Counted from the stretch's first letter, positions 2,161-38,078 are shown. The stretch: DNA of 56,169 nucleotides from Candidatus Kapaibacterium sp. (GCA_046590195.1 JBKJTP010000084.1:1-56169), one strand, 5' to 3'. Notes: generated from the letters alone by a model not told the origin. Made by a program: numbers and translations.

Positions 2161-2165
2161 GATAA

Positions 2166-11675: not shown

Positions 11676-11970
11676 AATTCTGACCGAAAATGGTTTTAGA
11701 GACTTTATGACCGTCACTTCAAAGATGACGCCGGGCTACTGTGTCATCACTCTTACCGATGGTGTTGTGGTTAAGTGTACCCAGAGTCACCGATTCAAAG
11801 TAGGGGAGGAATTCGTCGAAGCCCGCGACCTCAAGCTTTCAGACAAGCTGGCACCGACCGGGGTTGGCGTATCGGCCATTGAATACGTTACGGATGAAGT
11901 TGAAGTTTTTGATGTAGTTAATGTAGATGATGGTAATCATTATATCACCAACGGTATAACATCACATAAT
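11659..11970 (+). other. C-intein fragment (104 aa, blocks B, F, G)
   Basis: See the TerL C fragment above. The terminal His-Asn occupies residues 103-104 and Cys is at +1. Confidence 0.7.
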
Positions 11971-14614: not shown

Positions 14615-15763
14615 ATGACTTTTAACATTAAGGCGAAGTTCAAGAAGAACAACGCGAATAGTAGAACTATTTCTACTGATGATCCAACGCCGGATTTTTA
14701 TCTCAATACCGGTAACAAGCTACTAAACAAGATTATCTCTGGTCAATATGACAGAGGTTGGGCTCAGGGGCGCATCGGTGGTATAGCCGGTCTGTCCGGA
14801 GCGGGTAAGTCATTCCTACTCGGTAGTGCCATGGTACAGGCTCAGAAGCAAGGATACTTCATCCTAGTAATCGACGCTGAAAACGCTCTCGATAGTGATT
14901 ACTTGAACGCAATCGGCGTGGACACGGAAAGCGATATGTACTTGCACGTGTCAGTGTCCACATTGAGTGCATGTACCGATTCCGTTCGACAGGTTACAGA
15001 AGATTATCATACGGCTCGGACTAACAAGAAGCTGGACGAAATGCCACGCATTCTAATCCTTATCGACTCTCTGGACTTCCTGTTTACAGATTCTATGATG
15101 AAGCGGTTCGAGGAAGAGAACGAGCTTGGTAGTGACCAAGGTCTTCAGGCTAACAAGACCAAGCAGATGCTGAAGTCTTTCGTTGCTGACCTCAAATTCT
15201 TGCCCGCTGTTATGATTTGCACCAAGCAGGTTTACATTGACCAAGCCCCGAACGCGCAGCCACCGGTCAAGATGTCGGAAGCTGCCAAGTTCGCTTTCAC
15301 ACAGCTACTTCTGGTATCTCGTCTGATGAAAAAGGATGAGAAGTCGAAGGAGAAGTACGTAACCTATAACGGTATCGAGCTTCGAGCATTCGCGTGGAAG
15401 ACGCGTGGATGTAAGCCATTCCAACGCTGCGATCTAGTAATTCCTTACGATGAGGGCATGGACGAATACGAAGGTATGCTTCAGGTAGCTGTCAAGCATG
15501 GTATTGTTGAAGCCGCCGGTTCATGGTACACCTTCGGCGAAACTAAGTGGCAAGGCGCGGACAAGTGGCGCTCGCTTGCCACCACGGTGAAGGAAGAAAT
15601 CTTCCAGCAGATCGTCGAGAAGGACATCAAGACCATCAATGTTACGGAAGGCGAAGATGAGGTTGACGTGGAACTGGGCGGTGTTACCGGACCAAAGAAA
15701 GGCAAGGCGACAAGCGCAGTAGCCAAGCTGAAGGAACGTCTCGCTGATGTTGATGGTGAGTAA
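14615..15763 (+). CDS. uvsX: RecA-family recombinase (UvsX-like)
   Basis: Walker A GLSGAGKSF, Walker B ILILIDSLD. Overall collinear with the remembered T4 UvsX layout. Sits next to the SSB gene. Confidence 0.7.
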   Translation: MTFNIKAKFKKNNANSRTISTDDPTPDFYLNTGNKLLNKIISGQYDRGWAQGRIGGIAGLSGAGKSFLLGSAMVQAQKQGYFILVIDAENALDSDYLNAIGVDTESDMYLHVSVSTLSACTDSVRQVTEDYHTARTNKKLDEMPRILILIDSLDFLFTDSMMKRFEEENELGSDQGLQANKTKQMLKSFVADLKFLPAVMICTKQVYIDQAPNAQPPVKMSEAAKFAFTQLLLVSRLMKKDEKSKEKYVTYNGIELRAFAWKTRGCKPFQRCDLVIPYDEGMDEYEGMLQVAVKHGIVEAAGSWYTFGETKWQGADKWRSLATTVKEEIFQQIVEKDIKTINVTEGEDEVDVELGGVTGPKKGKATSAVAKLKERLADVDGE

Positions 15764-16394: not shown

Positions 16395-16864
16395 TGGCAG
16401 TTGTTGACCTAATCAAAGACGACCTATCCAACCTGCAAGAGGTGGTGAGGTATTATGACGCCGAGTTCAAGGCGCATGTAAAAGAACTCGCCTTGGATAT
16501 GAAGACGTATTCAAGAGCCAACTCAGAACAAGCCGGACTACTGGGCTTCTATGACCAGCTTCGCTGTGAATTGGAAGTCATGCTGGACGACATGAAGATG
16601 CGTTACGACGTAGCACGTTATCTGGCGCTGAGAGAGCTACAAAAAAACGAGTCGAAGACCCACCCGGAACGTACCTTGAACATGCTAATCGACGGCAACA
16701 AGGATGTTATCCTACACCACAAAGCCAAGAACGAAATAGACGAAAGGCTCAAGAAGGCCAAGTCCATCGTAGGCGCGTTCGTTCAGCGTGGACATTCGCT
16801 ACATAATCTCGTGAAAGCACGAACCGGCGAATTCCAGAACGAACCCATCTACGTGAATGAGTAA
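16394..16864 (+). CDS. possible UvsY-like recombination mediator
   Basis: Size (156 aa), helical character and the C-terminal FVQRGHSLHNLVKAR (T4 UvsY IKSRGFAIKHIQDMR as remembered). Located between the UvsX-like and UvsW-like genes. Confidence 0.4.
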   Translation: MAVVDLIKDDLSNLQEVVRYYDAEFKAHVKELALDMKTYSRANSEQAGLLGFYDQLRCELEVMLDDMKMRYDVARYLALRELQKNESKTHPERTLNMLIDGNKDVILHHKAKNEIDERLKKAKSIVGAFVQRGHSLHNLVKARTGEFQNEPIYVNE

Positions 16865-18347
16865 GAAAACAGCTACAATAAAAATACTCGATGAAACAAA
16901 CATCGTAGTTATAGGTCTGACCCAGTCCGAGTACAAGGTGCTGTCTGGCATATTCTCGGTGTTTGCCAAGGCGTACATGTTCCACCCGCTCTACAAGCTG
17001 AAGAAGTGGGACGGCCGGATACGTTTCTTCTCGCAGGCCGGCGCATCTTACATTACCTTGTTGCAGGATATCGTCCCGCACATCAAGAAGATGGGCTACG
17101 CCATTAAGTACATCGACCGCCGCCGCTATGTCGATGTCGAAATCCCGCAGATCGACAAGGACTATCTGTCCGACTACGGCTGGGAGCTTGGCGAGCATCA
17201 GGTTAACGCTATTAACGCTATTGCCGAACATGGTAATGGTATGCTCATCGCCGGTACCGGTGCGGGTAAGACCCTTATCACGGCGGTCCTATGCGACCTC
17301 TACGAGCGTATTTGTCGCCTTAAGATTGTCGTCATTGTCCCGAACATCGACCTTATCGACCAGACGGCGTTAGAACTTAGAGCCTTCGACCTCAATGTCG
17401 GTACCTATTCCGGCGCGGGAAAGTCTCTAGAAGAGAACATCATTGTTTCGACGTGGCAGTCTATCCAGAACAACCCTCGTATTATGTCCAACTTTCAAGC
17501 CGTCATTGTAGACGAATGCCACGGCACCACGGGTAAGGTACTTCAGGAAATCCTGAACGAGCATGGCGCTCACATTCCTGTCCGTATCGGTATGACTGGT
17601 ACCCTCCCGAAGGAACCCGCAGACCTCATGGCCGTGTCCGTAACATTGGGCAAGGTGCTTTACGAGGTCAAGGCCCATACGCTAATCGCTAAGGGTTGGC
17701 TGGCTAACCTCTTCATTAAGATGTACTGCCTGATGGAAGATTTCTCCGAACGATGGGCTGCCTTCCAGAAGAAACATCCGGAAGATGCCGCCGAAATGAC
17801 CGAGAAGGATTTCATCGAGCATCTGTTTCCAGATTATGAAGCCGAAACGACCTATCTACAGAAGCGCAAGCTCCGAACGGTATTCATGGCAGACTTCATT
17901 GAGAATATCCGTGGTCAAGCCAAGGGTAATACATTCGTTCTGGTGAAGTCGATTGCTGTCGGTAAGGCACTAGCCAAGCTCATCGAGGGTGCGTTGTTTA
18001 TCTACGGTCAGGACAAGACCGCAGTGCGTAAGCAAATCTACAAGATGTTCGAGGAACACGATAACCTCGTTGTCATCTCTACCTTCCAGCTTGCTTCCAC
18101 CGGACTGAACATCAAGCGCATCTTCAACCTCGTCTTCATCGACGCCGGTAAGTCCTTCACCAAGATTGTGCAGGCTATCGGTCGTGGTCTTCGTAAGGCC
18201 AAGGATAAAGATTTCGTCAACGTCTATGATTTCCACTCCAATCTAAAATTCTCGAAGCGGCATGCCGGACAGCGCAAGTCGTTCTACAAGGAACAGAAGT
18301 ACAATTATGTCGTTAAGAAGGTCGATTACGAGTCATACTACAAGTGA
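16857..18347 (+). CDS. uvsW: SF2 DNA helicase (UvsW-like)
   Basis: Motif I AGTGAGKT, motif II DECH, motif III TGT, motif VI QAIGRGLR. Confidence 0.75.
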   Translation: MSKKTATIKILDETNIVVIGLTQSEYKVLSGIFSVFAKAYMFHPLYKLKKWDGRIRFFSQAGASYITLLQDIVPHIKKMGYAIKYIDRRRYVDVEIPQIDKDYLSDYGWELGEHQVNAINAIAEHGNGMLIAGTGAGKTLITAVLCDLYERICRLKIVVIVPNIDLIDQTALELRAFDLNVGTYSGAGKSLEENIIVSTWQSIQNNPRIMSNFQAVIVDECHGTTGKVLQEILNEHGAHIPVRIGMTGTLPKEPADLMAVSVTLGKVLYEVKAHTLIAKGWLANLFIKMYCLMEDFSERWAAFQKKHPEDAAEMTEKDFIEHLFPDYEAETTYLQKRKLRTVFMADFIENIRGQAKGNTFVLVKSIAVGKALAKLIEGALFIYGQDKTAVRKQIYKMFEEHDNLVVISTFQLASTGLNIKRIFNLVFIDAGKSFTKIVQAIGRGLRKAKDKDFVNVYDFHSNLKFSKRHAGQRKSFYKEQKYNYVVKKVDYESYYK

Positions 18348-18413: not shown

Positions 18414-18902
18414 ATGATTATTTCAGACGAAAACAGCTATCCTGTAATGGTGGACAGCGTTGAAACTCCACTGAGTACGGAATGGTTCTGGGTTCTGGAT
18501 TTGGTTAACAAGGACTTCATACTGACGCCATTGATGATGAACGAGGAATTACACACGCCGACGTTCGAGCTTTTAATCAACAACTACGTTATCGAAGTCC
18601 CGACCAACTGGAACATTCTATTGTACTCGGAAGAGACTTCTCAGCTTGACGTTGCCGAAGTGTCGGAATTGACTAGGGGTAACTTCACGGCTCTTGGCTT
18701 CCAACATAAGAAAGACCGTATCGTTCCCGGTGAAGTGAAGGTAATCAACTACAACCCGTTCGCAAGAGTGCATACGCCATCCTTACACAAGACGCACATG
18801 CTCTGTCATGCCCTTGGTCCGGATGTGTGGCTGTGTATCTCACCGAGCGACAATTACAACAAATACCTCAAGAACATGATGATCGGCGACATACTCCCGT
18901 AA
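18414..18902 (+). CDS. hypothetical protein
   Basis: ORF downstream of a strong early-type promoter. No motif recognised. Confidence 0.5.
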   Translation: MIISDENSYPVMVDSVETPLSTEWFWVLDLVNKDFILTPLMMNEELHTPTFELLINNYVIEVPTNWNILLYSEETSQLDVAEVSELTRGNFTALGFQHKKDRIVPGEVKVINYNPFARVHTPSLHKTHMLCHALGPDVWLCISPSDNYNKYLKNMMIGDILP

Positions 18903-18979: not shown

Positions 18980-19402
18980 ATGGCTAAGATAGCTAAGAAG
19001 AACTCAAAAAGTATTAGCGCCAAGGAAATCAAGGCGTGGCTACGAGGCATACAAGAGTTTCAGCCGGAAGGTTGGACTCCAAGTAAAGCTCAGTGGGATG
19101 CGATCCGTGACCGTATTTTCTCACTTGACGAGGATGTAGTGGAACATTCACAGTTTGAAGTCTCGCGTTCGACACGCGTAGTCGATTTCGTCCCGGCCCC
19201 GCAGTTTGCGCCACCGGCCCATGGGTTTCCACAGATATCGAATAACGAAACCTATGTAGCTGCTACTCCAATGGGTCCGTCTATACTGGCCGATACAGCT
19301 AACGCGACAGCTAAAAACGTTAAGTTGAAGCCGGCAGGCGATGGCGGTGTGTCTGTAATTGCAGACCCGACTGCCGAAGGCGAGTACAAGTCTCCATTCT
19401 AA
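18980..19402 (+). CDS. hypothetical protein
   Basis: ORF with an ATGA-type junction to the next gene. Confidence 0.5.
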   Translation: MAKIAKKNSKSISAKEIKAWLRGIQEFQPEGWTPSKAQWDAIRDRIFSLDEDVVEHSQFEVSRSTRVVDFVPAPQFAPPAHGFPQISNNETYVAATPMGPSILADTANATAKNVKLKPAGDGGVSVIADPTAEGEYKSPF

Positions 19403-19941
19403 TGCAGACTGTGTTGAAAGACAGAATACTCTGGTTCGATGGTGATTCCACTATCGAACCAGATGTTCTTGCGGATATCGTCCTAAAAGGATTAAAACTC
19501 AAGAAGGGTATCTTCGTGAGTGAGGTCACAGACGAGATTGAGCAGTTCAATCGGATTTCCACTTATCAGCTTGAAGAAAAGACCGAGAACCGCCCGTTAT
19601 CATTTGACTGGAATATCCCGGAGAAGTATATAGAGATGAATCTCCGGACGTTCTTTCTAGGCAAGCTGGCCGAAGAAGCCGAATGGAATATAAAGCTTTC
19701 GCAATCAGACTTGGAAGAACGAATCAAGAGAATCGACGTTGAACTGGACGCGTATTACCAGTCAAATGTCAACATGTTGCTCCGTTCGACCCTGTTCATC
19801 ATAGATACCTTTAAGGAGAAAAACGTGGTATGGGGGGTAGGCCGAGGCAGCGCCTGTAGCTCATATATACTGTATCTTGCTGGCGTTCATGATATAGACA
19901 GCGTAGCCTACGAATTGGATATCAGTGATTTCCTTCGCTAA
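19402..19941 (+). CDS. DnaE (Pol III alpha)-like fragment 1: palm segment up to the ERFL helix; no PHP domain
   Basis: VWGVGRGSACSSYILYLAGVHDIDSVAYELDISDFLR* aligns to E. coli DnaE [39 protein letters not shown]. Upstream, EERIKRIDVELDAY... aligns to YDERLETELQVI.... The ORF stops exactly where DnaE continues into PDFDVDF. Confidence 0.65.
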   Translation: MQTVLKDRILWFDGDSTIEPDVLADIVLKGLKLKKGIFVSEVTDEIEQFNRISTYQLEEKTENRPLSFDWNIPEKYIEMNLRTFFLGKLAEEAEWNIKLSQSDLEERIKRIDVELDAYYQSNVNMLLRSTLFIIDTFKEKNVVWGVGRGSACSSYILYLAGVHDIDSVAYELDISDFLR

Positions 19942-19983
19942 GGCTGAGTATAAATAGAGTTTGCCCAACAGAGGATTTTTCAA

Positions 19984-20268
19984 ATGGCTAGAAAAGCAAC
20001 CAGTATGCGTGGCGAGACCGTCGATTTTGACCTATTCGCTATCAAGGAACAAATCAACGGCGCACCGGTTACGGAGACTATCCAGAATCGTGAGCGTTTC
20101 ATCGACCTACGTCGTAAGCGTGGCACGCGTCGTAAACTACAGGACATGCTCGCCGAACAGGAAGCATCCAAGAAATCCGTAACTGAAGCCATCAAGGCGG
20201 ACGCGACGGCTGATCCTGCCGGCGCTGCCCCGAAAAAGCGTACCATCCAGAAGAAAAAGGAAGTCTAA
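19984..20268 (+). CDS. hypothetical charged protein
   Basis: ORF only. Confidence 0.45.
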   Translation: MARKATSMRGETVDFDLFAIKEQINGAPVTETIQNRERFIDLRRKRGTRRKLQDMLAEQEASKKSVTEAIKADATADPAGAAPKKRTIQKKKEV

Positions 20269-20585
20269 TGTCAGCATCAAATCTGCGTTGCCCTAAGAGC
20301 CGAATCCTATTCCAGTTTTACGAGGGGGTTAGTGGTGGTTCGTTCGACAACAAAACGGATTGGGGGTTTAACATCAAGAAGCCAACCCAAGACATCCTTT
20401 CCCCACGTTGGGCTACGGTGAAGGTTGTAGGTAAGGACGTGAAGTATGTTGTACCGGGGCAATACATCTTGATTGAACCGTCCATGTGGACAATTGGATT
20501 CACCTACAATGATGAGAAGTATTGGGCTACTGCCGAAGAAAAACTCATCGCTGTGTCAGACGAAGCCCCAAGGGGCATGGTCTAA
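20268..20585 (+). CDS. possible GroES/gp31-like co-chaperonin
   Basis: About 100 aa with the pattern RILFQF...(loop)...ATVKVVGKDVKYVVPGQYILIEP......EEKLIAVSDE, resembling the GroES layout. Weak. Confidence 0.3.
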   Translation: MSASNLRCPKSRILFQFYEGVSGGSFDNKTDWGFNIKKPTQDILSPRWATVKVVGKDVKYVVPGQYILIEPSMWTIGFTYNDEKYWATAEEKLIAVSDEAPRGMV

Positions 20586-20600
20586 GTAATATCAATATAG

Positions 20601-20636
20601 CGGAGACGGTGTGCATTCCCGTCTCCGTTGTCGTTT
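20601..20636 (+). terminator. intrinsic terminator hairpin
   Basis: CGGAGACGG (20601-20609) pairs with CCGTCTCCG (20619-20627), followed by TTGTCGTTT. Confidence 0.7.
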
Positions 20637-20644
20637 GTAACGTC

Positions 20645-20673
20645 TTGATAAATCCCCTGCTTGCGTGTACACT
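20645..20673 (+). promoter_or_regulatory. sigma70-type promoter
   Basis: TTGATA, 17-nt spacer, TACACT. Confidence 0.45.
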
Positions 20674-20702
20674 TGTCGCATAACAAGTAGAAGGATTGTA
20701 TT

Positions 20703-21653
20703 ATGCTACAAACTCCGTGGGCGCTGAAGCATCGCCCCGCCAATCTCAAGGAATTCATCTTTCAGGACCAGCAGACCAAGGATTTGGTTGCGCGATATAT
20801 CGAAGATAAGAGCTTTCCGAATCTACTCCTGATAGGGCATCGCGGTACTGGTAAGACCTCTCTTGCATTGCTGCTCAAGCAGCAGCTTGGCATTGACGAC
20901 ATGGACTTTTTGGCTCTCAATGCTTCGGACGATAACTCCGTCGATGTTATCCGGACCAAGGTCAAGAGCTTCATTGGCACCTTCGCGCTGTCGGAATTCA
21001 AGATTGTTCTTCTAGACGAAGCTGATTACCTGACGCCTTCGGCTCAAGCTGCACTGCGCGGCATGATGGAAGATGAGGAATTCTCTACCAATGCTCGGTT
21101 CATCTTGACCGGTAACAAGGCACACAAGATTATCCCGGAGCTACGCGACTCGCGTCTCACGGAGATAGTATTCAAAGCCCCCGACCGCGATGCAATGCTA
21201 TTACGTGCTGTCAAGATTTTGAAGAAGGAGGGGGTTACCATTGATGATGATTCATTGGGGCTCTTGGAGAAATACCTTGATGAATCCTATCCTGACTTCC
21301 GCAAGCTGTTGGTCAGACTGGAACGCCATACCGTCAATGGTAAGCTGACAGACTCGGAGACAGGGAAGTCCACCGGTAATGAATTCCTCGTTGACCTGAT
21401 GGATATGATGGAGAGTAACAAGTGGGGTAGCATTCGCGGCTACATGGCCGAGAATACTCCGGATGACCAATGGGAAGAAGTATATCGCTTCCTATATGAT
21501 TACATCGGTGAAGTTGTTAGCTTCAAGTCCGCCGATAAACAGGATCAAGCAATCGTTGTAATTGCTGACCACCTGTACAAACACGCCTTTGTGGCCGATC
21601 CCGAGATAAACTTCGCGGCCTGTATCATCAAACTATCAAAAATCAGCAAGTAA
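20703..21653 (+). CDS. clamp-loader AAA+ ATPase subunit (T4 gp44 / RFC small-subunit-like)
   Basis: Walker A GHRGTGKTS, Walker B/DEAD LLDEADYL, sensor-1 FILTGN, SRLTE (SRC-like). Confidence 0.8.
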   Translation: MLQTPWALKHRPANLKEFIFQDQQTKDLVARYIEDKSFPNLLLIGHRGTGKTSLALLLKQQLGIDDMDFLALNASDDNSVDVIRTKVKSFIGTFALSEFKIVLLDEADYLTPSAQAALRGMMEDEEFSTNARFILTGNKAHKIIPELRDSRLTEIVFKAPDRDAMLLRAVKILKKEGVTIDDDSLGLLEKYLDESYPDFRKLLVRLERHTVNGKLTDSETGKSTGNEFLVDLMDMMESNKWGSIRGYMAENTPDDQWEEVYRFLYDYIGEVVSFKSADKQDQAIVVIADHLYKHAFVADPEINFAACIIKLSKISK

Positions 21654-21662
21654 GAGGACATC

Positions 21663-22073
21663 ATGCAAAATACAGACCCATATAACCAGTCACCGAACCT
21701 AGACCTGTTTCAGGAACCTATTACACAGGAACTTGCTAACAAGCATATCGCTGCCGTCGCCGCGCATCATGGCAAGAATGAGAAGCTCGCGTGGAAGCGT
21801 AAGGTCAAGAAGATGATGGGCTACATCGAAGAGGTCGGTAAGTTCGAAGAGCAGATAATGGAACTCACCAAGGCCAAGCAGCCAATTCTAGACGCGATTG
21901 CATTCCTGCGTAGCGAGATGACAAAGGAGTGCATTCATCCGAAGGACCACCTCGCGCACCTGAATACATACCTAATCTGTAAGTTCTGCGATAACAAAAT
22001 CAGCATTCCTCGCATCCTGAAGGCCGAAGAGCCTGACACTGATGAGGAAGAGGCTGACGATGGCGGAGAGTAA
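21663..22073 (+). CDS. hypothetical Zn-ribbon protein with an acidic tail
   Basis: CIHP...H......CKFC and the C-terminal EEPDTDEEEADDGGE. Confidence 0.5.
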   Translation: MQNTDPYNQSPNLDLFQEPITQELANKHIAAVAAHHGKNEKLAWKRKVKKMMGYIEEVGKFEEQIMELTKAKQPILDAIAFLRSEMTKECIHPKDHLAHLNTYLICKFCDNKISIPRILKAEEPDTDEEEADDGGE

Positions 22074-22515
22074 GCTCGACATTTGGGAATTGCTGCGAGC
22101 TATCGACGATAATAAGCGGGCATTCTTAAAACAGCTTCCGGAAGCACAACGAAAGGGTTTTGCCCCTATCGTTGTGCTTCGCTGGCTGTCGGGTTCCGGA
22201 GACCAAGCGCAGCTTCATAATCTGAATGAGCTAGTCAATTCCACGGTATTCAACCTCTACAAGCATCCGGACCTACTTTACCGGCTCATGACGGCGGCTA
22301 CTCCGGCCTGTCGCAAACAGTATCAATGGATCAAGCCGCACAAGAAGGCAAAGCTCTCTAAGCGCATTGATGTTATCAAGCGATATCTCAGCGTGCCCAA
22401 TCGGCAGGCATTTGAATTCACCGAGTTGTATACCGACGATGACATACTGGAAATGAGTGACGCTCTCGGGGATGACAAGGACTTCACCAAGCTACTCAAG
22501 GCAGAAATGAAATGA
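22060..22515 (+). CDS. possible clamp-loader small subunit (T4 gp62-like)
   Basis: LLYRLMTAATPACRKQYQWIKP....IDVIKRYLSVPNRQAFEF resembles remembered gp62 [21 protein letters not shown]...LLAKRYQVNTNDAINY. I prefer the start at ATG 22060 (SD GAGGAAGAGG) over 22042. Confidence 0.45.
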   Translation: MAESKLDIWELLRAIDDNKRAFLKQLPEAQRKGFAPIVVLRWLSGSGDQAQLHNLNELVNSTVFNLYKHPDLLYRLMTAATPACRKQYQWIKPHKKAKLSKRIDVIKRYLSVPNRQAFEFTELYTDDDILEMSDALGDDKDFTKLLKAEMK

Positions 22516-23195
22516 ATAAGTTCGGCTTCTATGAATGTGAATACTGTTCCAAGCGATACCTAAAAGAAGCTCCATTCAAGAAGCACACTTGCGAAGCCGG
22601 CGTGCGACAAAAGTTTACCCGTACCACTAAGCGCGGGCGTTTCTGCTACAACGTCTACAAGTCATGGTTGAAGTATCGCGGATTCCACGAGTCGGATATT
22701 GACGCTTTTGTCGAATCTCGTTACTACAATCCTATTATCAAGTTCGTTGAATTCTACTACACCACGATGCTTCCGGACATGGACGACTATATCAAGTCCA
22801 TGGTCGAGCAGAAGATGCTACCGCAGATGTGGACCAATGGTACGGTTTACGAACAGTACATTTCAAACTACGACGAAAGTGTAACCCCGGTAAGACAAGC
22901 CGAGATATCCATTCGGCATCTTAATACCTTGGCAAAGACACTGGAATGTGAGCCAGTAGAGGTATTCGATTACTTGTATGTCCCCGATTTGGTGAAGCTC
23001 ATTCAATGCCGCCGATTCTCACCGTGGATTCTATTGGCCTCTAAGCGTTTTCAGCGATACATGGCAGAGACAGATTTAGCTGAAAGGCCGGCTCTGGAAA
23101 TGATGGTCAATCTCGATGTGTGGCTGCCGCGCTTCCGAGAATGGCCGAAGGAGCGGGAAATCATCGCAAACCTCACAAAGCAGTTAGGAATCTAG
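22512..23195 (+). CDS. hypothetical protein with an N-terminal C2HC-like zinc finger
   Basis: CEYCSKRY...H.C. Any gp59-like helicase-loader resemblance is too weak to call. Confidence 0.45.
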   Translation: MNKFGFYECEYCSKRYLKEAPFKKHTCEAGVRQKFTRTTKRGRFCYNVYKSWLKYRGFHESDIDAFVESRYYNPIIKFVEFYYTTMLPDMDDYIKSMVEQKMLPQMWTNGTVYEQYISNYDESVTPVRQAEISIRHLNTLAKTLECEPVEVFDYLYVPDLVKLIQCRRFSPWILLASKRFQRYMAETDLAERPALEMMVNLDVWLPRFREWPKEREIIANLTKQLGI

Positions 23196-23203
23196 CCAGT
23201 GTG

Positions 23204-23211
23204 TATAAATA
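23204..23211 (+). promoter_or_regulatory. T4-type late promoter TATAAATA upstream of the fibre gene cluster
   Basis: Exact TATAAATA, 27 nt before the ATG at 23238. Confidence 0.5.
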
Positions 23212-23237
23212 CATTGAGTATTAAAACGGGATGAGAC

Positions 23238-24527
23238 ATGGCTAACTGCGCTGAAAATGTATATGTAATCAAATACACCGATATCGCCAAGGGTACGATT
23301 ACGATCACCAAGTCTTCCTTGGTTACGAATCTGATCGACATCGCGCTGGTCGGTAAGTCGCGTCTTGATTACGGCGAACTATTCGACGAGAACCTACTCC
23401 ATCTTCTAGAGAACTTTGCTTGCCCGGAAGACTCCGGTACGCCGGGTACTCCTGATCTGTCCGAAGCCTATGGCACCCTTCTAAGCAATCCTATTCAGGG
23501 TCAGAAGTGGTACAACTCAACCAATGGTTATCTGTATATCTTCAGCAACGATGAGTGGATTTGTCAGGGGCGTCAAGGCGACGTTGCTGGTAACTCCGGC
23601 GTCATTGCCCATGGCGCGTATCTTCCGCAGCCTGTTAACTCCCTCGGTTACGTGTTCCCGTATGCAGAGTGTAGCTTCGTTGTAAGTCCTCATTCCTATT
23701 TGGCTACTGATATTACCGGCCTCCCGGCTGATATAGAAGTTGATTTCATGACGTGTAATGTCGATGCAAATGGGCTAGTAACAATGCAGTTCCGTTATCG
23801 CGGTGAGTCTTCTCTACGAGACGGTTACGTCAATTATCAGATTATTGGTATCCGTGGTGAAACCAACGGTGCGGTCATGGTGGTAACACCATACCCTGTC
23901 CCATCTCCGACTCCGGGTGTGAGCCCGACAATTACACCAACGATGACGCCTACGAAGACGGTCACACCGACCCCAACGAAGACCCCGACACCGACCCCGA
24001 ACTTGTCTGTCTCGGTAACACCGACGAAGACGGTAACCCCAACACCGACGATTACTGTCACCCGTACAGTAACTCCAACACCGACACCGACGAAGACGGT
24101 AACCCCAACTCCATCGCCGTCTACTGCGGCAGCACTGGACCTGAGTCGTTTCTCCGGGCTTATTGGTACCACCAGTCTCCACAATCCGGCAGCAGTGGTT
24201 GTCACATTCGATGTTGATGGTACATGGGCTATTGATAGAATTCCGGGTACGGATGAGACCGGAACTTTCCTTGCTTCCGGTGATACATCAGAATATGAGT
24301 TTGAATTCTCCTATACTGGTGATGACGACCCATCCGGTGGCGCTTATGTCCCAAGTACATGGTATCCTGTAGCAGACGGTATTTACTTGTCTATTTCTGA
24401 TGCTGTTGTTGGCTCAGGTTTTAATTCCTCATTGTGTGTGTTGACCATGCGTAAGATTAGTAATAATGCCATTTCCGAGACCGCATCATTCACAATGCGT
24501 GCAGACGGTAATACATACGACGGATAA
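23238..24527 (+). CDS. fibre-like structural protein, paralogue A (conserved N-domain, PT linker, unique C-domain)
   Basis: Its N-terminal ~215 aa are shared with the ORFs at 24583 and 27054 (blocks listed in the findings). Followed by an 80-aa Pro/Thr linker. Confidence 0.7.
   Translation: MANCAENVYVIKYTDIAKGTITITKSSLVTNLIDIALVGKSRLDYGELFDENLLHLLENFACPEDSGTPGTPDLSEAYGTLLSNPIQGQKWYNSTNGYLYIFSNDEWICQGRQGDVAGNSGVIAHGAYLPQPVNSLGYVFPYAECSFVVSPHSYLATDITGLPADIEVDFMTCNVDANGLVTMQFRYRGESSLRDGYVNYQIIGIRGETNGAVMVVTPYPVPSPTPGVSPTITPTMTPTKTVTPTPTKTPTPTPNLSVSVTPTKTVTPTPTITVTRTVTPTPTPTKTVTPTPSPSTAAALDLSRFSGLIGTTSLHNPAAVVVTFDVDGTWAIDRIPGTDETGTFLASGDTSEYEFEFSYTGDDDPSGGAYVPSTWYPVADGIYLSISDAVVGSGFNSSLCVLTMRKISNNAISETASFTMRADGNTYDG
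23886..24125 (+). repeat. Pro/Thr-rich linker-coding low-complexity repeat (paralogue A)
   Basis: TPYPVPSPTPGVSPTITPTMTPTKTVTPTPTKTPTPTP...TVTPTPSPS. Reiterated ACN-CCN codons create spurious antisense ORFs. Confidence 0.85.
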
Positions 24528-24582
24528 TCGTCTGGTGATAGATATAGAGATGTAAAGCGGTACCAAATCATAAGGTAATAGA

Positions 24583-26883
24583 ATGTCGGATTACAACGTA
24601 AAGTTTACAGACACCAACAAAACTCCCATTCTCGTCGAACAGGATGCTCAGAAGTCAACCGAAACGGACCTCGTTCTGTTCGGTCGAAGCTTCTTGGAGT
24701 ATGGTGAACAACTGAATGAGAATCTGGTAAAGATACTAGAGAACTTTGCATGTTCCGAAATGGCAGCACCACCGGAAGCTGGCGATTGGCCCGACACCGA
24801 TCTTACCGTCAATGAGACACTTACCGAGCCACTCGAAGGTCAGTTGTGGTATAACACCACGAAGCAGGCCCTGTACAATTACAACGGTACCATGTGGATT
24901 CCGCTGGTGACGGGTTCGGACTATGCTGCCAATTGGGGACAAGTCACAGACGGTACACTATTACCGCGTCCGGTTGCACAAAATGGATATGTTTTCCCTT
25001 ACTCGGAGTGTATCTGGATAGTCTCTCCGGCCGGACATGGCGGTCGATTCGATTATATGGCTTGCACTACAGACGAAGACGCGCAGGTACTGATGCGTTA
25101 TCGTTTACTCGGTGACGACACGCTGACTAGCGGTACCGCAAATTATCTCATTATTGGTATTCGTGGTAACACTAACAACGGTACCATCGTTGTGGACCCG
25201 CCGATTTATGTCGAGCCGAGCCCAACACCGGGTGCATCCCCGACACCGGCACCGTCAAGTACGCGTCCGCCGACTCCAACTCCAACGAACACACGCACTG
25301 CAACGCCGACGATTTCGTTGACGCGTACACCGGTACCGTCCGCCTCACGTACTCCACCACCAACACCATCACCACGTCCGGCTCTCGCCATGAACATCGT
25401 TGACAGTGCCCGTGGTGGTGACTACGTGGACTCCATCAGCCTATGCAACATGGGTGACTACATCTCGACCTTGGACGTTGGTAATCAGGGTTGCACGGTA
25501 ACTATCGGTAACTGCACCTCCGGTGCATGCGCTCCGGAACCGGGTGATTTCTCCACGGGTGACGTAGCAATCGGTGCGGCTATGGGTATCACTGTAACCG
25601 GTGGCACTGCACCGTACACCGTCAGATTCAAGACCTTCACCGCTACGAGCGGCGCGGCAGCATTTGCAGCTAGTGGCGACTGTCTGTTCATCGGCGGTAG
25701 TTCTGGTTTCAGCACACTACCAAGCGGAACAGTCTATTCTTTCATCATCCCGACCGATGGTGGTAGTCAGGATGGCATCACAATCAACGCTTCATGCGGT
25801 GACGATGTTTACACGCTGACTGGTAACTTCACAGTTGAGGTAACGGATTCCGTTGGTACCATCATATCGGAAACATTCCCTTACACCGTAGAACGTAAGA
25901 ACGAAGCAGCTTGCTATGACATCACCGATTTCCGCTCCGGATTTATGCTATCTGATAGTAATGGTGGGTCTTCAAGTTGTGATGGTAGCGCCATGGCGTC
26001 CTCCGGTACACCTACTAACTGGCTAGCGAAGACGGCCAGCGTAAACTACACATCGTTCAATTCGAACGTCGGAGCGCCAAGCAAGGTAATCATGTCCGGT
26101 ATTCCGAAGTGGTGGCCGCGTCCGGCGGCGCGTGTGACATTAACCATTACACACCCACTAGCCGGCTCTGCTCCGGTAACAGTAACGGCGTTCCGTGATA
26201 CTGGTAGAGCTAGCGCGGCTAATGGTGTATCGACCGGAACCGGTTCAGTTACTATTGGCGCGCATACCTATACCGTGACACTGTCGATAACAGTAGGATA
26301 CACCGGTAAGGACCAAATTGATGGTGTGTGTAATGATATTTACTACTACAATATCAGTCCGTCCTTCACAATTTCTCCGGCTATTACTTCTTGTTCAGCA
26401 CTGACACCGCCGGGTGGCGCACTCTATGACGGTGGTGGTGGTGGTGGTTGTGTTACGACCGAATCCATGATTTACGGTAGTGGCCTAGCTTCCGGCGTCA
26501 TGGTCGGTGCGACCATGACGGTCATCGACCCATCCAGTCTAGAGTTGGGTACGGGTATTGTTTCTCTGGCCGACATCAAGCTACAGCCTTGCGTGCGAAT
26601 CACTTCCGAGTCAGGCGTTGTGCTGGAATGCTCGACAACCGCTCCAATCGCTAACAGCGACGGTGTGCAGGTTCTAGCTCCTGACCTGTTGGGTGTCGAA
26701 GTGCTTGTCTACGACAATGGTGTGGTGCGTTCTGAGAAGGTTGTGAGTGTTGAAGACATCGGTGACAAGGAAGTCGTCCACATCACGGTAGAGAACAACT
26801 ACTTCTTGGCCGGTGCCGAAGACGGTCGTTACTTCTTCCACCATAATATCAAAAACTTCATTGGCGGGTTACAGCCTTACTAA
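24583..26883 (+). CDS. fibre-like structural protein, paralogue B, with a C-terminal Hint (intein-like) domain
   Basis: Shared N-domain, PT linker (25195-25380), a ~350-aa G/S/T-rich region, a Gly6 run, then the Hint domain. Confidence 0.75.
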   Translation: MSDYNVKFTDTNKTPILVEQDAQKSTETDLVLFGRSFLEYGEQLNENLVKILENFACSEMAAPPEAGDWPDTDLTVNETLTEPLEGQLWYNTTKQALYNYNGTMWIPLVTGSDYAANWGQVTDGTLLPRPVAQNGYVFPYSECIWIVSPAGHGGRFDYMACTTDEDAQVLMRYRLLGDDTLTSGTANYLIIGIRGNTNNGTIVVDPPIYVEPSPTPGASPTPAPSSTRPPTPTPTNTRTATPTISLTRTPVPSASRTPPPTPSPRPALAMNIVDSARGGDYVDSISLCNMGDYISTLDVGNQGCTVTIGNCTSGACAPEPGDFSTGDVAIGAAMGITVTGGTAPYTVRFKTFTATSGAAAFAASGDCLFIGGSSGFSTLPSGTVYSFIIPTDGGSQDGITINASCGDDVYTLTGNFTVEVTDSVGTIISETFPYTVERKNEAACYDITDFRSGFMLSDSNGGSSSCDGSAMASSGTPTNWLAKTASVNYTSFNSNVGAPSKVIMSGIPKWWPRPAARVTLTITHPLAGSAPVTVTAFRDTGRASAANGVSTGTGSVTIGAHTYTVTLSITVGYTGKDQIDGVCNDIYYYNISPSFTISPAITSCSALTPPGGALYDGGGGGGCVTTESMIYGSGLASGVMVGATMTVIDPSSLELGTGIVSLADIKLQPCVRITSESGVVLECSTTAPIANSDGVQVLAPDLLGVEVLVYDNGVVRSEKVVSVEDIGDKEVVHITVENNYFLAGAEDGRYFFHHNIKNFIGGLQPY
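25195..25380 (+). repeat. Pro/Thr/Ser-rich linker-coding repeat (paralogue B)
   Basis: DPPIYVEPSPTPGASPTPAPSSTRPPTPTPTNTRTATPTISLTRTPVPSASRTPPPTPSPRP. Confidence 0.85.
26449..26847 (+). other. Hint / bacterial-intein-like autoprocessing domain at the fibre C-terminus
   Basis: Begins with Cys after GGGGGG (CVTTESMIYG, block A-like). Block F-like VVHITVENNYFLAG. Ends FFHHN (block G His-Asn). The +1 residue is Ile, followed by only 11 aa (IKNFIGGLQPY). Confidence 0.6.
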
Positions 26884-27053
26884 TGTATATCATCGTCCGA
26901 CACAAAGATAATGTAATCGTAGGCAACGCTCTTCGTCCGGTTGACGAAGTTCAGTTGTCCAAAAATGGCTATAAGGTATTCGAGATAGATGACTCCGAGT
27001 TCTCTATCTCAATGCTGGGCTCCAAACTGGACGGGTTTCAAGAGGTTAAGTAA
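26883..27053 (+). CDS. small hypothetical ORF (56 aa), below the ORF-track cutoff, between fibre paralogues B and C
   Basis: ATG overlaps the upstream stop (TAATG) and its own stop abuts the next start (TAAATG). Translation: MYIIVRHKDNVIVGNALRPVDEVQLSKNGYKVFEIDDSEFSISMLGSKLDGFQEVK. Confidence 0.4.
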   Translation: MYIIVRHKDNVIVGNALRPVDEVQLSKNGYKVFEIDDSEFSISMLGSKLDGFQEVK

Positions 27054-28259
27054 ATGACAGTCTACAAGGTAAAGTACACCCTAGCGGACAAGACTCCAAT
27101 TTCCATTCCGGAATCGGAAGTCGATAGCTCGACGGCCGTAAAGTTATTCGGTCGTAAGAAGCTCGCTTACGGTAAGGACTTGAACGAGAACCTACTACGC
27201 CTTCTGGAATCATTCTCCTGCCCGGAACTCGCTGCTACGCTTCCGGTCACCCCGGACGCGGACTCGCTGGCAGACGCTACCGTATTTGCAAACCCGGTCG
27301 AGGGTCAGTTGTGGTTTAATTCAACTAGAGAAACCCTCTATGTCTGGGACGCGACAGAGTGGATTGAGCATAAGAAATTTGGTGACATTGCCGCGAATTG
27401 GGGTATAATTGCATCTGGCGGTCAGATTCCACTACCCGTCTCGTCCAACGGTACAACTTACACATACGCAGAGTGTTCATGGATTGTTAGCCCGTGGGGT
27501 TATCCAAACGCTATAGATTTCATGCGGTGTTTTACTGATGACGACGCCAACGTGACGATGGAGTATTCTCTGGAAGCCTCCGGTAGTAACGTCGCAGGCT
27601 TCGCAAATTACATCATCATCGGCATTCCGGGTAACGTCAATCTTGGTGTTACACTGCCACCTGTTTCCATGACACCGACACCGACAGTCACGCCGACAAT
27701 TTCCATAACGCCGACCATGACACCGACACCAACGCCGACAACTTCGGTAACGCCAACGTTACCAACGTCACCAACCCCAACCCCGACAATTACGGTCACG
27801 CCGACAATTACGGTCACGCCGACACCGACAATTTCCATAACGCCTACACTTTCCCTGACACCAACGCCGACAGTTTCCAGCGGCGCGTTGATTTCAATGC
27901 CAGCGGAAGGTACGGAAATCTCGTCGTTGGAATCCGCAGCAGCACCGGCCACGGCGGACTTTGCACTTCAGTCGGATGGTGATTATGCTTACTTCGAATT
28001 TGCCACACTTCCACCACGGTGGTTGGTCAGTGGTACTCCGAGTGACTACGAATGTCGTGTTATTCAAACGAGCGGCTCGTTCGACGCCGGTTCTGCTACG
28101 AATACATGGCTAAACCTCGGAACGACTCGTTCGTGGCATAATACCTCCACACTACCACAGACCATAAACTTCACGCTTGAAATCCGTAATGCTGGTACGC
28201 TGGTTAGCTTTGGTGTAGTTAACATGGTAATGTACACTGAAGGTAACATTGGCGCATAA
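27054..28259 (+). CDS. fibre-like structural protein, paralogue C
   Basis: Shared N-domain, PT linker (27654-27875), unique ~125-aa C-domain. Confidence 0.7.
   Translation: MTVYKVKYTLADKTPISIPESEVDSSTAVKLFGRKKLAYGKDLNENLLRLLESFSCPELAATLPVTPDADSLADATVFANPVEGQLWFNSTRETLYVWDATEWIEHKKFGDIAANWGIIASGGQIPLPVSSNGTTYTYAECSWIVSPWGYPNAIDFMRCFTDDDANVTMEYSLEASGSNVAGFANYIIIGIPGNVNLGVTLPPVSMTPTPTVTPTISITPTMTPTPTPTTSVTPTLPTSPTPTPTITVTPTITVTPTPTISITPTLSLTPTPTVSSGALISMPAEGTEISSLESAAAPATADFALQSDGDYAYFEFATLPPRWLVSGTPSDYECRVIQTSGSFDAGSATNTWLNLGTTRSWHNTSTLPQTINFTLEIRNAGTLVSFGVVNMVMYTEGNIGA
27654..27875 (+). repeat. Pro/Thr-rich linker-coding repeat (paralogue C)
   Basis: LPPVSMTPTPTVTPTISITPTMTPTPTPTTSVTPTLPTSPTPTPTITVTPTITVTPTPTISITPTLSLTPTPT. 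Confidence 0.85.
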
Positions 28260-28267
28260 CCATAACC

Positions 28268-28921
28268 ATGCCCCTTAAAATAAAGAACATAACAACTTCG
28301 AAGACCGTAGAGCAGGGAAGATTGGAGTGGGCGGAAACCCTCTCCCATCGTAATAAACTGCTCACCTCTTCGGATTGGACCCAGCTTCCGGACTCCGGTC
28401 TTACGTCTGAGTGTGTTGAGAACTGGCGTATCTGGCGAGGCATCGTCCGGCAGCTTCGCAAGGACAATCATCCTGACCGTAATCTTGTTACGGAGCAAAT
28501 CAATCGTCTTACTCGTGCCAAGCCCGTCAACCGATGGGCCGACGAGCCTGAGATTGCGTTGCCTCTTCTCGATAACTCATTCGCTAGCCATCAAAAGCGC
28601 GTCATGGATTACATGGACGTGATGTTCAACGATGCCGCCACTGTCAAGTCATTCCTCGAACATCCTCTCCTGATAGATGCCGGCCTCCGGAAGGCAGAAA
28701 AGGAGCTTGGTATATTGGGTAAAATTGGAATCCTATCCAGAAAAATATGGTCCGATAAACTATTCGAATTGAATCACCGAAGGAATGTTAGTGTAGCCCG
28801 TATTTTCAAGCTACAGAGCAAGTACTTGGAGTTTTCCGAGCTTGTCAAGAACGCCACGGCTACTGTAGAATTGCAGACACTACAGGTAGAAATAAAGCAA
28901 TGGATATCGACATTGACTTAA
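28268..28921 (+). CDS. possible tail-fibre assembly/chaperone-like protein
   Basis: The N-terminal RNKLLTSSDWTQLPDSGLTSECVENWRIWRGIVRQLR matches the remembered tail-fibre-assembly signature (LL..SDW..lpD......W..YRq.LR). Lies directly after the fibre paralogues. Confidence 0.35.
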   Translation: MPLKIKNITTSKTVEQGRLEWAETLSHRNKLLTSSDWTQLPDSGLTSECVENWRIWRGIVRQLRKDNHPDRNLVTEQINRLTRAKPVNRWADEPEIALPLLDNSFASHQKRVMDYMDVMFNDAATVKSFLEHPLLIDAGLRKAEKELGILGKIGILSRKIWSDKLFELNHRRNVSVARIFKLQSKYLEFSELVKNATATVELQTLQVEIKQWISTLT

Positions 28922-29469
28922 GGTCGGACTTCAAGGTGGAGCGGGTGTTCAAGCATGTAACGCCCGCTTCTATGGTAGAGAAGGATGAACTTAAGCGACA
29001 TAACGTTGGCGCGTACTTCCAGAAGATTCCGCGTGACCCCATCTCCAATCTCGCCGCAATCCCCTATGGGGAGGCGGAGGAATTGGGCTATCTGAAAATA
29101 GACTTCCTTTCACTAAATTTACTGTCCAGTTTCGAGACTAAGGCCGAAGTTTTACACTTCGCCCGCAAGGAACCAAACTGGAAGAGATTGAACGATGAAC
29201 AGTTCGTAGAGAAGCTATTCCACATTTCCAAACACTATGACATGGTTCAAAAGGTCAACCCACGTTCCGTACTGGAACTGGCTGACATTCTGGCTCTGAT
29301 TCGACCGGGTAAAACCATTCTTCTGGATAAATACCTGAAGAACAAGAAACTGACGAGGAAGGAACTGTACACCAAGCGGCAGGTATCGGACCTACGAAAG
29401 TCCCATGCCATAGCTTATGCAGTCAACATCGTCATTAATATGAATCTGGTTGAGGCCGGAATACTATGA
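28900..29469 (+). CDS. DnaE (Pol III alpha)-like fragment 2: catalytic palm aspartates plus an abbreviated fingers region
   Basis: MDIDIDL (DnaE PDFDVDF), RHNVGAYF (HAGGVVI), GYLKIDFLSLNLLS (GLVKFDFLGLRTLT, third catalytic Asp), LADILALIRPGK (MIALVALFRPGP), LRKSHAIAYAV (FNKSHSAAYAL). The thumb is almost entirely missing. Confidence 0.7.
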   Translation: MDIDIDLRSDFKVERVFKHVTPASMVEKDELKRHNVGAYFQKIPRDPISNLAAIPYGEAEELGYLKIDFLSLNLLSSFETKAEVLHFARKEPNWKRLNDEQFVEKLFHISKHYDMVQKVNPRSVLELADILALIRPGKTILLDKYLKNKKLTRKELYTKRQVSDLRKSHAIAYAVNIVINMNLVEAGIL

Positions 29470-31450: not shown

Positions 31451-32086
31451 ATGCCTATCTCGACCGTCTCCGGCTCTCAGGGGCAGGGTAAATCCACTGT
31501 CCTGAATACCCTCTCGTCAATGTGCTATAGTGTTGTCGAGCGTAAGACTTCGCGCTCCATCCTCAGCGAATGGGGCTTTACATTGAACGAAGTAAACAAG
31601 TACCCACCACTCACCGCCCGCTTCCAAGATGAAGTGCTACGTCGTCATCTGGAAAGCATGCGTCCGCTTATTGACGATGACAACTTCCATTTCATGGAGC
31701 GTTCGTTCTCGGATATCTTCACCTACGCGGTCATGGCGATTGGCTCGTTCAACGAGTACAACGACTGGATGGAAGACTATTATCACAAGTGCATCGAAGC
31801 TCAGTCCTACTTCCACAAGGTATTCCACCTCACCGGCCGTACATTCGTTCCTGAAGAGGATGGTGTCCGTTCCACAAGTCGCTTCTTCGGTCCTGTTGTT
31901 GACCGTGAGATTGCTGATTGCTTGAAGCGTATGGATGTTGCCGTTGGTAAGGGTCAACTTATCACTATCGGCGTCCCGGACAATGAGGAACGTGTGCAAG
32001 CTATCCTGCGCCACAGTGTCGGCACTGAACGCGTAGTGGGATGTCACCCTGATATTGTTCTTCCGGCGTGGGACAATGGCTGTTAA
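31451..32086 (+). CDS. P-loop kinase, AAA_28 / NadR ribosylnicotinamide-kinase-like (tentative)
   Basis: Walker A GSQGQGKST. VERKTSR after the P-loop, FMERSFSDIFTYA (NadR FIDTDFVTTQAF) and PEEDGVRS (NadR WVADGLRS) parallel the remembered NadR kinase domain. Confidence 0.35.
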   Translation: MPISTVSGSQGQGKSTVLNTLSSMCYSVVERKTSRSILSEWGFTLNEVNKYPPLTARFQDEVLRRHLESMRPLIDDDNFHFMERSFSDIFTYAVMAIGSFNEYNDWMEDYYHKCIEAQSYFHKVFHLTGRTFVPEEDGVRSTSRFFGPVVDREIADCLKRMDVAVGKGQLITIGVPDNEERVQAILRHSVGTERVVGCHPDIVLPAWDNGC

Positions 32087-32672
32087 GCCGCAGGGTTGGT
32101 ACAACAAGTTCTTGGTCATTGATGCTGAGACTTCCGGTCTCAACTTTGACCAGAACAGCCATGACATTACACTGGGCTATCAGTCGGTAGCATGGGGCTT
32201 CATCGTTTCCGATATGAAGACGATGAAGCCTATCGACGAACTCTACTTGGAAATCAAGTGGGACGGTGAATCACTGTGGCATTGGAAGGCCGAGAAGACC
32301 CATGGTCTGTCTAAGGCAAAGCTTGAGAAGACTGGTATGACGGCTTCTGATGCGGCCGATGCCATTGTAATGTTTCTAGCCGAGCATTTCGAGGTTGAAG
32401 AGACCATCATCTGCATGGGTATCAACGTTGCCCGGTTCGACATTCCCTTTCTTAAGAAGCTGCTCATAGCTCACGGCTACCCTGTAAGCTTCTCCCATCG
32501 TTGTCTTGATGTGTCGGCCCTTGCTGCTATGACCATCGGCACCTATACCAGTCAGCAAATGTTTGATGAGCTAGGTATTGATCGCGGCTCCGTACATAAT
32601 GCATTAGAAGACTGTCGTGCTACCCTGAAGGCTGCTCGTATTATCAGGTCACTGTTTCGCGCTAGTGCATAA
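32076..32672 (+). CDS. DEDDh 3'-5' exonuclease (DnaQ/RNase T-like)
   Basis: ExoI VIDAETSGL, ExoIII HNALEDCRAT. I prefer the start at ATG 32076, which overlaps the upstream stop region. Confidence 0.75.
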   Translation: MAVKPQGWYNKFLVIDAETSGLNFDQNSHDITLGYQSVAWGFIVSDMKTMKPIDELYLEIKWDGESLWHWKAEKTHGLSKAKLEKTGMTASDAADAIVMFLAEHFEVEETIICMGINVARFDIPFLKKLLIAHGYPVSFSHRCLDVSALAAMTIGTYTSQQMFDELGIDRGSVHNALEDCRATLKAARIIRSLFRASA

Positions 32673-37088: not shown

Positions 37089-37125
37089 ATACCTACAATC
37101 AAAGTCGTGATGACGGAGTGTAGGT
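37084..37125 (+). promoter_or_regulatory. TATAAATA late-promoter consensus abutting a 7-bp hairpin that spans the SD-to-start region of the endonuclease gene
   Basis: TATAAATA at 37084-37091. ACCTACA (37091-37097) pairs with TGTAGGT (37119-37125). GGAG at 37115-37118, ATG at 37127. Confidence 0.5.
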
Positions 37126-37126
37126 A

Positions 37127-38044: not shown

Positions 38045-38078
38045 AGATATACAATAATAACAACATCAACAACGACAC

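Follow-up and report, generated by a model that had tools for sequence, protein, structure and literature searches.

Two distant genes of an uncultured phage encode the palm and fingers of a miniaturised DNA polymerase III alpha

Cyanobacteria encode the alpha subunit of DNA polymerase III (Pol III) at two distant loci, DnaE-N and DnaE-C, and intein halves ligate the resulting chains by protein trans-splicing. A two-piece polymerase can also work without such ligation, as illustrated by Aeromonas phage 25, whose two gp43 pieces, gp43A and gp43B, co-purify and are active (PMC2988022, review). Group 2.2 jumbo phages have a minimal Pol III alpha, encoded in two pieces, in addition to a family B polymerase, and one-strand synthesis or repair has been suggested as the role of the split enzyme (Iyer, Anantharaman, Krishnan, Burroughs & Aravind 2021, Viruses 13:63, PMC7824862); alpha- and epsilon-like genes had already been noted in Atu_ph07 and Rak2-like phages (Attai et al. 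2018). Here we describe a pair of such genes on a stretch of 56,169 nucleotides listed under Candidatus Kapaibacterium sp. (GCA_046590195.1, JBKJTP010000084.1:1-56169), referred to below as the window. The two open reading frames (ORFs), which we call the N-half and the C-half, encode the palm and fingers of a miniaturised Pol III alpha, and probably represent two subunits of one enzyme, an auxiliary DNA polymerase whose single Pol-beta-fold active site is put together non-covalently. An initial annotation, made from the sequence alone, implied that the arrangement was novel; it had already been described as a hallmark of the group 2.2 jumbo phages (Iyer et al. 2021, PMC7824862), and PHROGs and RefSeq records such as 121Q already label both halves DNA polymerase. 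The window pair is a new example of a known split enzyme, not a discovery. To the existing description we add a selection analysis, natural fusions of the two halves, one of them beside a replicase gene of the archaeo-eukaryotic primase (AEP) type, a confident joint model, and the contrast with an intein found in the same window.

The architecture of the pair is identical to that of the group 2.2 system, with a standalone N-terminal nucleoside triphosphate-binding part and a C-terminal Mg- and template-binding part, genes that lie far apart, a T4-like jumbo-phage replication background, and membership in PHROG 11127 and PHROG 11778. What differs is the source, an uncultured phage without a near-identical genome in INPHARED, and the family B partner, which is not visible in the 56-kb window. 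A megablast search of the region against INPHARED returned no match, and the phage itself is therefore not among the isolates. The pair shares with DnaE and PolC (E. coli 2HNH and 5FKU, Taq 2HPI and 3E0D, M. tuberculosis 5LEW and 7PU7), its only significant structural neighbours, a Pol-beta-like palm with a GS motif, the DxD motif and third catalytic aspartate, and the RPG and KSHxxxYA finger motifs. Unlike these enzymes, which are single chains of 1,000-1,400 residues, the window enzyme comprises 368 residues in two chains and has no PHP, thumb, clamp-binding, HhH, OB or tau-binding parts. Like the cyanobacterial split-intein DnaE, it is a Pol III alpha derived from two distant genes, but the break lies elsewhere in the cyanobacterial protein, and the window pair is miniaturised and free of intein sequence. 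In the gp43A and gp43B proteins of Aeromonas phages 25 and 44RR (PMC2988022), two polypeptides likewise encode a phage DNA polymerase, and they assemble without splicing; they belong, however, to another polymerase family, and their genes are adjacent and split in connection with a homing endonuclease or an untranslated spacer, whereas the split in the window is ancient and dispersed and has no mobile element at either end.

Relation of the two halves to Pol III alpha

ORF calling recovered both ORFs on the plus strand with the coordinates and sequences that the initial annotation had reported (Table 1). The N-half gave a match to Pfam PF07733 (DNA_pol3_alpha) that exceeds the curated cut-off (E 1.6e-8) and a full-length match to PHROG 11127 (171 positions, E 8e-44). 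A PDB sequence search with the single protein produced marginal matches or none; a family profile built from 43 homologues aligned with E. coli Pol III alpha residues 286-393, GRGSG included (E 3e-5). A small, conserved α/β domain with the motif LWFDGDS occupies residues 1-90; within it, L10, W11, D13, G14 and N50 are invariant among the 43 homologues, and no Pfam match was found for it. Residues 90-179 form the N-terminal part of a Pol-beta-like palm and carry the nucleotide-binding motif W-G-x-G-R-G-S, with W144, G145, G147, R148, G149 and S150 invariant in the same set. The chain closes with VGRGSACSSYILYLAGVHDIDSVAYELDISDFLR, its palm helix ending in DFLR before the stop codon, at the point where E. 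coli alpha reads ERFLN(393).

The C-half begins with MDIDIDL and contains the motifs HNVGAYF, LKIDFLSL, ALIRPGK and RKSHAIAYA. It matched PHROG 11778 from end to end (E 7e-61) and PHROG 405, the full-length DnaE family, with an E value of 4e-9. Residues 58-162 gave a weak match to NCBIfam TIGR00594 positions 544-664 (E 0.0017), and the finger match to Pfam PF17657 reached 19.8 bits against a cut-off of 22, covering only profile positions 54-104 of 166. PDB sequence searches with the single C-half and with its profile found nothing, and a fold search was therefore needed to place it. The AlphaFold model of the C-half is confident, with a predicted local distance difference test score (pLDDT) of 93.1 and a predicted template modelling score (pTM) of 0.80, and the best 14 matches to it in the PDB by Foldseek were all Pol III alpha, the next match having an E value of 0.7.

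The MDIDID strand corresponds to the catalytic strand PDFDVDF of DnaE, with E. coli residues D401, D403 and D405; the alignment of a fused homologue, which runs over the junction, establishes this. Judged by motif and profile position rather than by a residue-level structural alignment, K66-I-D68 probably corresponds to the K553/D555 strand of the E. coli enzyme. ALIRPGK is the counterpart of ALFRPGP, a β-hairpin bearing HxxGxYFQ occupies the position of the thumb, and a reduced fingers module carries the motifs RPGK, LYTKR and DLRKSHxxxYA. Residues D2, D4, D6, H34, G37, Y39, Q41, K66, D68, P136, K138, H169 and Y173 are invariant in 43 homologues, and the RPG and KSHxxxYA motifs of DnaE fingers are kept nearly unchanged throughout the C-half family. 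The motif equivalences with DnaE drawn in the initial annotation were thus correct.

Relative to full-length DnaE, both halves are strongly reduced. No profile match to a PHP domain was found in either half, and only about 90 residues precede the palm. The DxD strand and the HxxG motif are separated by 28 residues, a β-hairpin, compared with about 106 in E. coli, where the interval includes the thumb, and the fingers keep about 118 residues, roughly a third, against about 350. Neither profile matches nor the model revealed clamp-binding, HhH, OB or tau-binding parts in either half. All NCBIfam scores lay between 12 and 30 bits, against equivalog cut-offs of 434-1,806 bits. The description of the pair as a miniaturised core devoid of the PHP domain, most of the thumb, the beta-clamp-binding region and the OB domain, already given in the initial annotation, agrees with the lack of profile matches and the total length.

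To model the halves together, we fused the window N-half artificially to the C-half and gave AlphaFold a block alignment, without pairing, made of 16 + 16 homologues. The resulting model has a pLDDT of 92.9 and a pTM of 0.86, with no low-confidence segments. Its 16 best matches in the PDB by Foldseek are exclusively DnaE or PolC; the best has an E value of 7.5e-9 and a template modelling (TM) score of 0.59 over the query, 4-5 orders of magnitude better than for the C-half alone, and a viral model library returned phage DnaE-type polymerases on top. The fold searches that the initial annotation had recommended therefore give C-family polymerases as the best matches, for the C-half as for the concatenation.

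Natural fusions, distribution and selection

Although the halves are nearly always separate, single-chain homologues exist. Three proteins of 375-376 residues from three samples (P0323, P0390 and P0391) contain the halves in native order, joined by a 9-residue linker with the junction EFIKD-NKEGIYNIA-DFDID. An exhaustive C-half profile search returned P0323 (375 aa), whose C-half match begins at residue 191, and a further fusion, P0366 (336 aa), where it begins at residue 113. The N-terminal part of P0323 aligns with the N-half family along its entire length with an hhalign probability of 99.4%, and P0390 and P0391, which come from other samples, are 78-81% identical to P0323. The fused chain aligns unbroken both with residues 319-417 of E. 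coli alpha and with positions 12-121 of PF07733. This places the break just before the DxD strand, between consecutive conserved elements, as the initial annotation had proposed. By profile and fold, the two halves belong to the palm and fingers of Pol III alpha, a resemblance far beyond chance. The fused sequences have their nearest relatives among the usual split halves (C-half, 65% identity; N-half, 51-55%), which suggests, without proving it, that fusion is secondary. The P0366 gene lies directly 3' of, and overlaps, an AEP-type 'Replicase' gene (PF03090, E 2.5e-13); on contig L006, where the fused gene overlaps the end of such a replicase gene, the two suggest a compact primase-polymerase module in a small element. 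Natural fusions are the classical comparative argument that two proteins act as one unit, and here they point to replication as the likely setting.

In a tblastn search of INPHARED, 103 records contained the N-half and 96 the C-half, and the numbers per genus hardly differ (N-half/C-half: Escherichia 34/34, Pseudomonas 11/11, Klebsiella 10/11, Salmonella 8/8, Erwinia 8/8, Xanthomonas 4/4). The roughly 100 isolated jumbo phages that carry both halves include XacN1, 121Q, PA5oct and Atu_ph07, and their hosts belong to different bacterial classes. XacN1 and Xoo-sp13 are the closest isolates, with 44% identity in the N-half and 58% in the C-half. Wherever positions were listed for both halves, they are separate genes, spaced from 4 to 224 kb apart: 4 kb in RsoM2USA, 14-15 kb in XacN1, Xoo-sp13, CM1 and RAS14, about 31 kb in 121Q, where the C-half lies upstream of the N-half, 182 kb in Atu_ph07 and 224 kb in Phosso. 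In the window, 8,958 bases and 11 ORFs separate the N-half stop from the C-half start. The initial annotation was right that the intervening genes, among them the clamp loader and three fibre-like proteins with Thr/Pro-rich linkers, are unrelated; its count of twelve is replaced by the 11 plus-strand ORFs. The same layout is seen in L003, a related metagenomic contig, and, from the positions of the halves, in XacN1. The top 120 relatives of each half in public protein collections are all standalone proteins, of 154-201 residues in the N-half family and 183-195 residues in the C-half family, with most between 180 and 190, and nearly all of the 394 representatives recovered by the exhaustive C-half search are close to 190 residues long. 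By these sequence comparisons, the split is ancient, universal in the lineage and stable. With some 100 phages carrying separate halves and rare metagenomic fusions, both similarly split and contiguous homologues, which the initial annotation had advised looking for, do exist.

Selection was assessed by comparing the window with L003, which spans 40 kb, has the same gene order and carries the halves 8.5 kb apart. The proportions of nonsynonymous (pN) and synonymous (pS) differences were 0.158 and 0.730 for the N-half and 0.124 and 0.660 for the C-half. In both, pN/pS is about 0.2 with synonymous sites saturated, and the ratio of the corresponding substitution rates (dN/dS) is about 0.07-0.09, in the same range as for the neighbouring genes (UvsW 0.09, RecA 0.085, clamp loader 0.05). 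Both halves are under purifying selection and are being maintained, not decaying.

Proposed assembly of the halves and competing explanations

We infer that the two chains are made separately and associate non-covalently, with neither an intein nor splicing involved. The N-half would contribute the helical part of the Pol-beta-like palm and the GRGS triphosphate-binding motif; the C-half would contribute the β-strands with three metal-binding aspartates (D2, D4 and D68) and a cut-down fingers module. One active site would thereby be rebuilt across the break, which falls in the loop just ahead of the DxD strand. The complex would most likely be an auxiliary DNA-directed DNA polymerase working beside the phage family B replicase, with primer extension, gap filling, repair or one-strand synthesis as possible roles. 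A two-subunit minimal C-family polymerase or nucleotidyltransferase core had been put forward in the initial annotation, and the profiles, fold, invariant residues, selection, genus counts, fusions and joint model all support it.

The family B replicase itself is seen in relatives. Within the window, a T4-like replication background was found (clamp loader, gp32, DnaB-type helicase and UvsW), and profile searches detected no family A or B polymerase in its 56 kb. The initial annotation had made the same observation, which stands but carries little information because the window is a piece of a genome that, judging by its relatives, exceeds 300 kb. In XacN1, the closest isolate, the gene for a family B polymerase that includes an exonuclease domain (PF00136, E 4e-34) lies 91 kb from the N-half, so that a search for a gp43-type enzyme, as the initial annotation had advised, succeeds in the isolate and fails inside the window.

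Several observations weigh against an assembled auxiliary polymerase. As these phages already have a complete family B replicase, exemplified by XacN1, a replicative role is not required of the pair. With the thumb, two-thirds of the fingers and the clamp-binding, OB and HhH parts absent, DNA binding and processivity of the Pol III alpha type cannot be assumed, and the equivalent of E. coli R390 shows no positional conservation in the N-half profile alignment. In the clade of the window, the C-half follows the fibre genes, outside the replication block, and the halves could therefore be expressed at different times. The joint model, being derived from an unpaired alignment and an artificially fused chain, carries no signal of co-evolution between the halves, and its confidence may merely echo DnaE structures learned by AlphaFold. 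Literature searches for biochemical, genetic or interaction studies of the split enzyme returned only Iyer et al. 2021 and genome notes.

Inteins were considered at the break and elsewhere in the window. Neither polymerase half gave a Hint or intein profile match. The fragments end and begin inside the fold (DFLR followed by the stop codon, and MDIDID), and there is no HN motif with a Cys, Ser or Thr nucleophile after it. The large terminase gene in the same window is interrupted by a genuine, atypical split intein and serves as a positive control (Table 1); its counterpart in L003 encodes an uninterrupted TerL of 525 residues. The terminase intein presumably resembles the atypical split inteins AceL-TerL and GOS-TerL.

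Against this background, joining of the polymerase halves after translation by a split intein, or at the RNA level, has next to no probability. Split-intein DnaE provides a precedent and the same phage has a split intein in its terminase, but at the polymerase break there is no room for intein pieces, in agreement with the initial annotation, which saw no intein motifs at the junction; no profile match or nucleophile was found there, and other phages have the two genes as much as 224 kb apart or in reversed order. It is equally hard to view the ORFs as functionless pseudogene remnants, left by the ordered decay of a once full-length dnaE, an alternative raised in the initial annotation. Their combined length is a third of that of DnaE, unrelated genes separate them and relatives have a canonical polymerase elsewhere, all points in favour of decay. 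Synonymous sites are saturated, however, while pN remains at 0.12-0.16 as in core replication genes; the catalytic residues are invariant, the AlphaFold models are highly confident, and lengths are fixed at about 180 and 190 residues, both in metagenomic homologues, which number in the hundreds, and in some 100 phage isolates. Purifying selection, invariant catalytic residues and fixed lengths effectively rule decay out. Nor does a canonical polymerase elsewhere mark the pair as pseudogene remnants, as the initial annotation had reasoned, given that such phages, XacN1 among them, carry a gp43-type family B enzyme as well. That the two proteins act independently, for instance as accessory factors of the family B polymerase or the clamp loader, is very unlikely. 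The halves are not co-located, and synteny with the clamp loader is conserved for the N-half and lacking for the C-half; yet neither half contains a complete active site, the GS motif being in one and the aspartates in the other, genus counts are almost identical, and natural fusions keep the native order.

The assembled chains might instead form a Pol-beta-fold nucleotidyltransferase that is not a templated DNA polymerase, engaged in template-independent 3'-end addition, in primer synthesis or extension on RNA, or in nucleotide or second-messenger chemistry during host conflict. Many enzymes of the Pol-beta superfamily are not polymerases, the pair keeps just the palm and about a third of the fingers, with no thumb, clamp-binding part or OB domain, its invariant N-terminal module (L10, W11, D13, G14, N50) is its own and has no Pfam match, and relatives possess a full family B replicase. 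We nevertheless consider this reading rather unlikely: the structural neighbours are all C-family enzymes, with no CCA-adding, cGAS-type or other nucleotidyltransferase among the significant matches, the DnaE finger motifs RPG and KSHxxxYA are nearly invariant, and the gene context is one of replication, the P0366 fusion being coupled to an AEP replicase/primase gene. Another reading, in which the split miniature alpha is a real second replicase, a two-chain C-family enzyme of about 42 kDa without PHP, thumb or clamp-binding parts that shares the fork with the family B enzyme, seems unlikely to us. Such an enzyme might take over from primase or make one strand, and in the XacN1 clade a DnaQ-like exonuclease might proofread for it in trans.

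Genomic surroundings and significance

Table 1. Coordinates of the split polymerase genes, neighbouring features of the window and fused homologues
Contig	Feature	Coordinates	Strand	Remarks
Window	N-half, split minimal Pol III alpha	19402..19941	+	179-aa ORF
Window	C-half, split minimal Pol III alpha	28900..29469	+	189-aa ORF
L002	Fused single-chain minimal Pol III alpha	1066-2193		Short metagenomic contig; fusions span 336-376 aa
L007	Fused single-chain minimal Pol III alpha	519-1649		Short metagenomic contig
L006	Fused single-chain minimal Pol III alpha	3171-4181		Short metagenomic contig
Window	DnaB-type helicase	3816-5477		Profile match
Window	255-aa ORF	9334-10101	+	Just upstream of terminase
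Window	TerL residues 1-267 and short N-intein	10111-11112	+	N-intein CVTGDTIVTV...
Window	GIY-YIG/NUMOD3 homing endonuclease ORF	11034-11675	+	Free-standing
Window	C-intein, then TerL residues 265-525	11659-12747	+	C-intein about 102 aa, ending SHN before C
Window	gp32	13464-14546		Profile match
Window	RecA/UvsX	14615-15763		Profile match
Window	UvsW	16857-18347		Profile match
Window	162-aa ORF	18414-18902	+	Between UvsW and N-half; one further 140-aa ORF before N-half
Window	105-aa ORF	20268-20585
Window	Clamp loader (gp44-like, RFC-like)	20703-21653		Profile match
Window	Three paralogous fibre-like genes	23238-28259	+	429, 766 and 401 aa
Window	DnaQ/epsilon-like 3'-5' exonuclease	32055-32672	+	PF00929 E 1.6e-5; TTG start; 2.6 kb downstream of C-half
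Window	NAD (nicotinamide adenine dinucleotide) salvage pair	36018-39521	+

The stop codon of the upstream ORF overlaps the N-half start codon by a single base (TAATG); the C-half starts 22 nt within the preceding tail-fibre-assembly-like ORF, and its stop codon overlaps the start codon of the ORF that follows (ATGA). A conserved micro-synteny, in which the N-half is followed by one or two small ORFs, then by another small ORF and finally by the clamp loader, is common to the window, XacN1 and the distant 121Q (19402-21653 in the window against L009, 121Q genes 56-60). The small ORF next to the clamp loader is annotated in 121Q as a chaperonin (head morphogenesis), and the 105-aa ORF of the window gave no Pfam match. 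The C-half of 121Q lies between UvsW/exonuclease genes and primase/helicase genes.

The 162-aa ORF between UvsW and the N-half surpasses the polymerase halves in conservation, with 86% amino-acid identity to its L003 counterpart and a dN/dS of about 0.025; it gave no match in Pfam, matches PHROG 11279 (function unknown), and is found in the XacN1 clade, with only a weak match in Phosso. The DnaQ-like exonuclease holds the same place relative to the C-half in XacN1, Xoo-sp13, CM1 and RAS14, is distant from it in RsoM2USA, and was not found outside the XacN1 clade by tblastn. Its position makes it a possible proofreading partner of the split polymerase. As additional subunits in general, the 162-aa ORF, a 113-aa ORF overlapping the C-half stop and the DnaQ-like exonuclease were all rejected because their conservation is confined to the XacN1 clade.

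The three fibre-like proteins encoded between the halves share a similar N-terminal region of about 200 residues, followed by long Thr/Pro-rich linkers (TPTPTPT...) and differing C-terminal parts, and matched no Pfam family. A Hint-like stretch at the C-terminus of the 766-aa protein (GGGGGGC VTTES ... FFHHN) was discarded, having no Pfam support. The 255-aa ORF just upstream of the terminase gene encodes a protein distantly paralogous to the ATPase portion of the terminase, with 31% identity to L003 TerL residues 14-272 (E 1e-35) and a weak match to Pfam Terminase_6N. In the NAD salvage pair, one protein matches a PHROG annotated as cytidyltransferase as well as Nudix hydrolase families, and the other is a nicotinamide/nicotinate phosphoribosyltransferase (PF04095 E 1e-40, NAMPT_N E 1e-19); comparable NAD-related annotations occur in the relatives RsoM2USA and Atu_ph07.

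The natural fusions P0323, P0390, P0391 and P0366 offer convenient constructs for activity tests. If the pair were a true second replicase, no functional C-family polymerase would be smaller, and it would serve as a living model for the ancestral Pol III core that Iyer et al. proposed. If active, the split enzyme would set the minimal unit needed for catalysis in the family of bacterial replicases, and would explain why giant phages of a whole lineage retain a bacterial-type polymerase beside their T4-type one.

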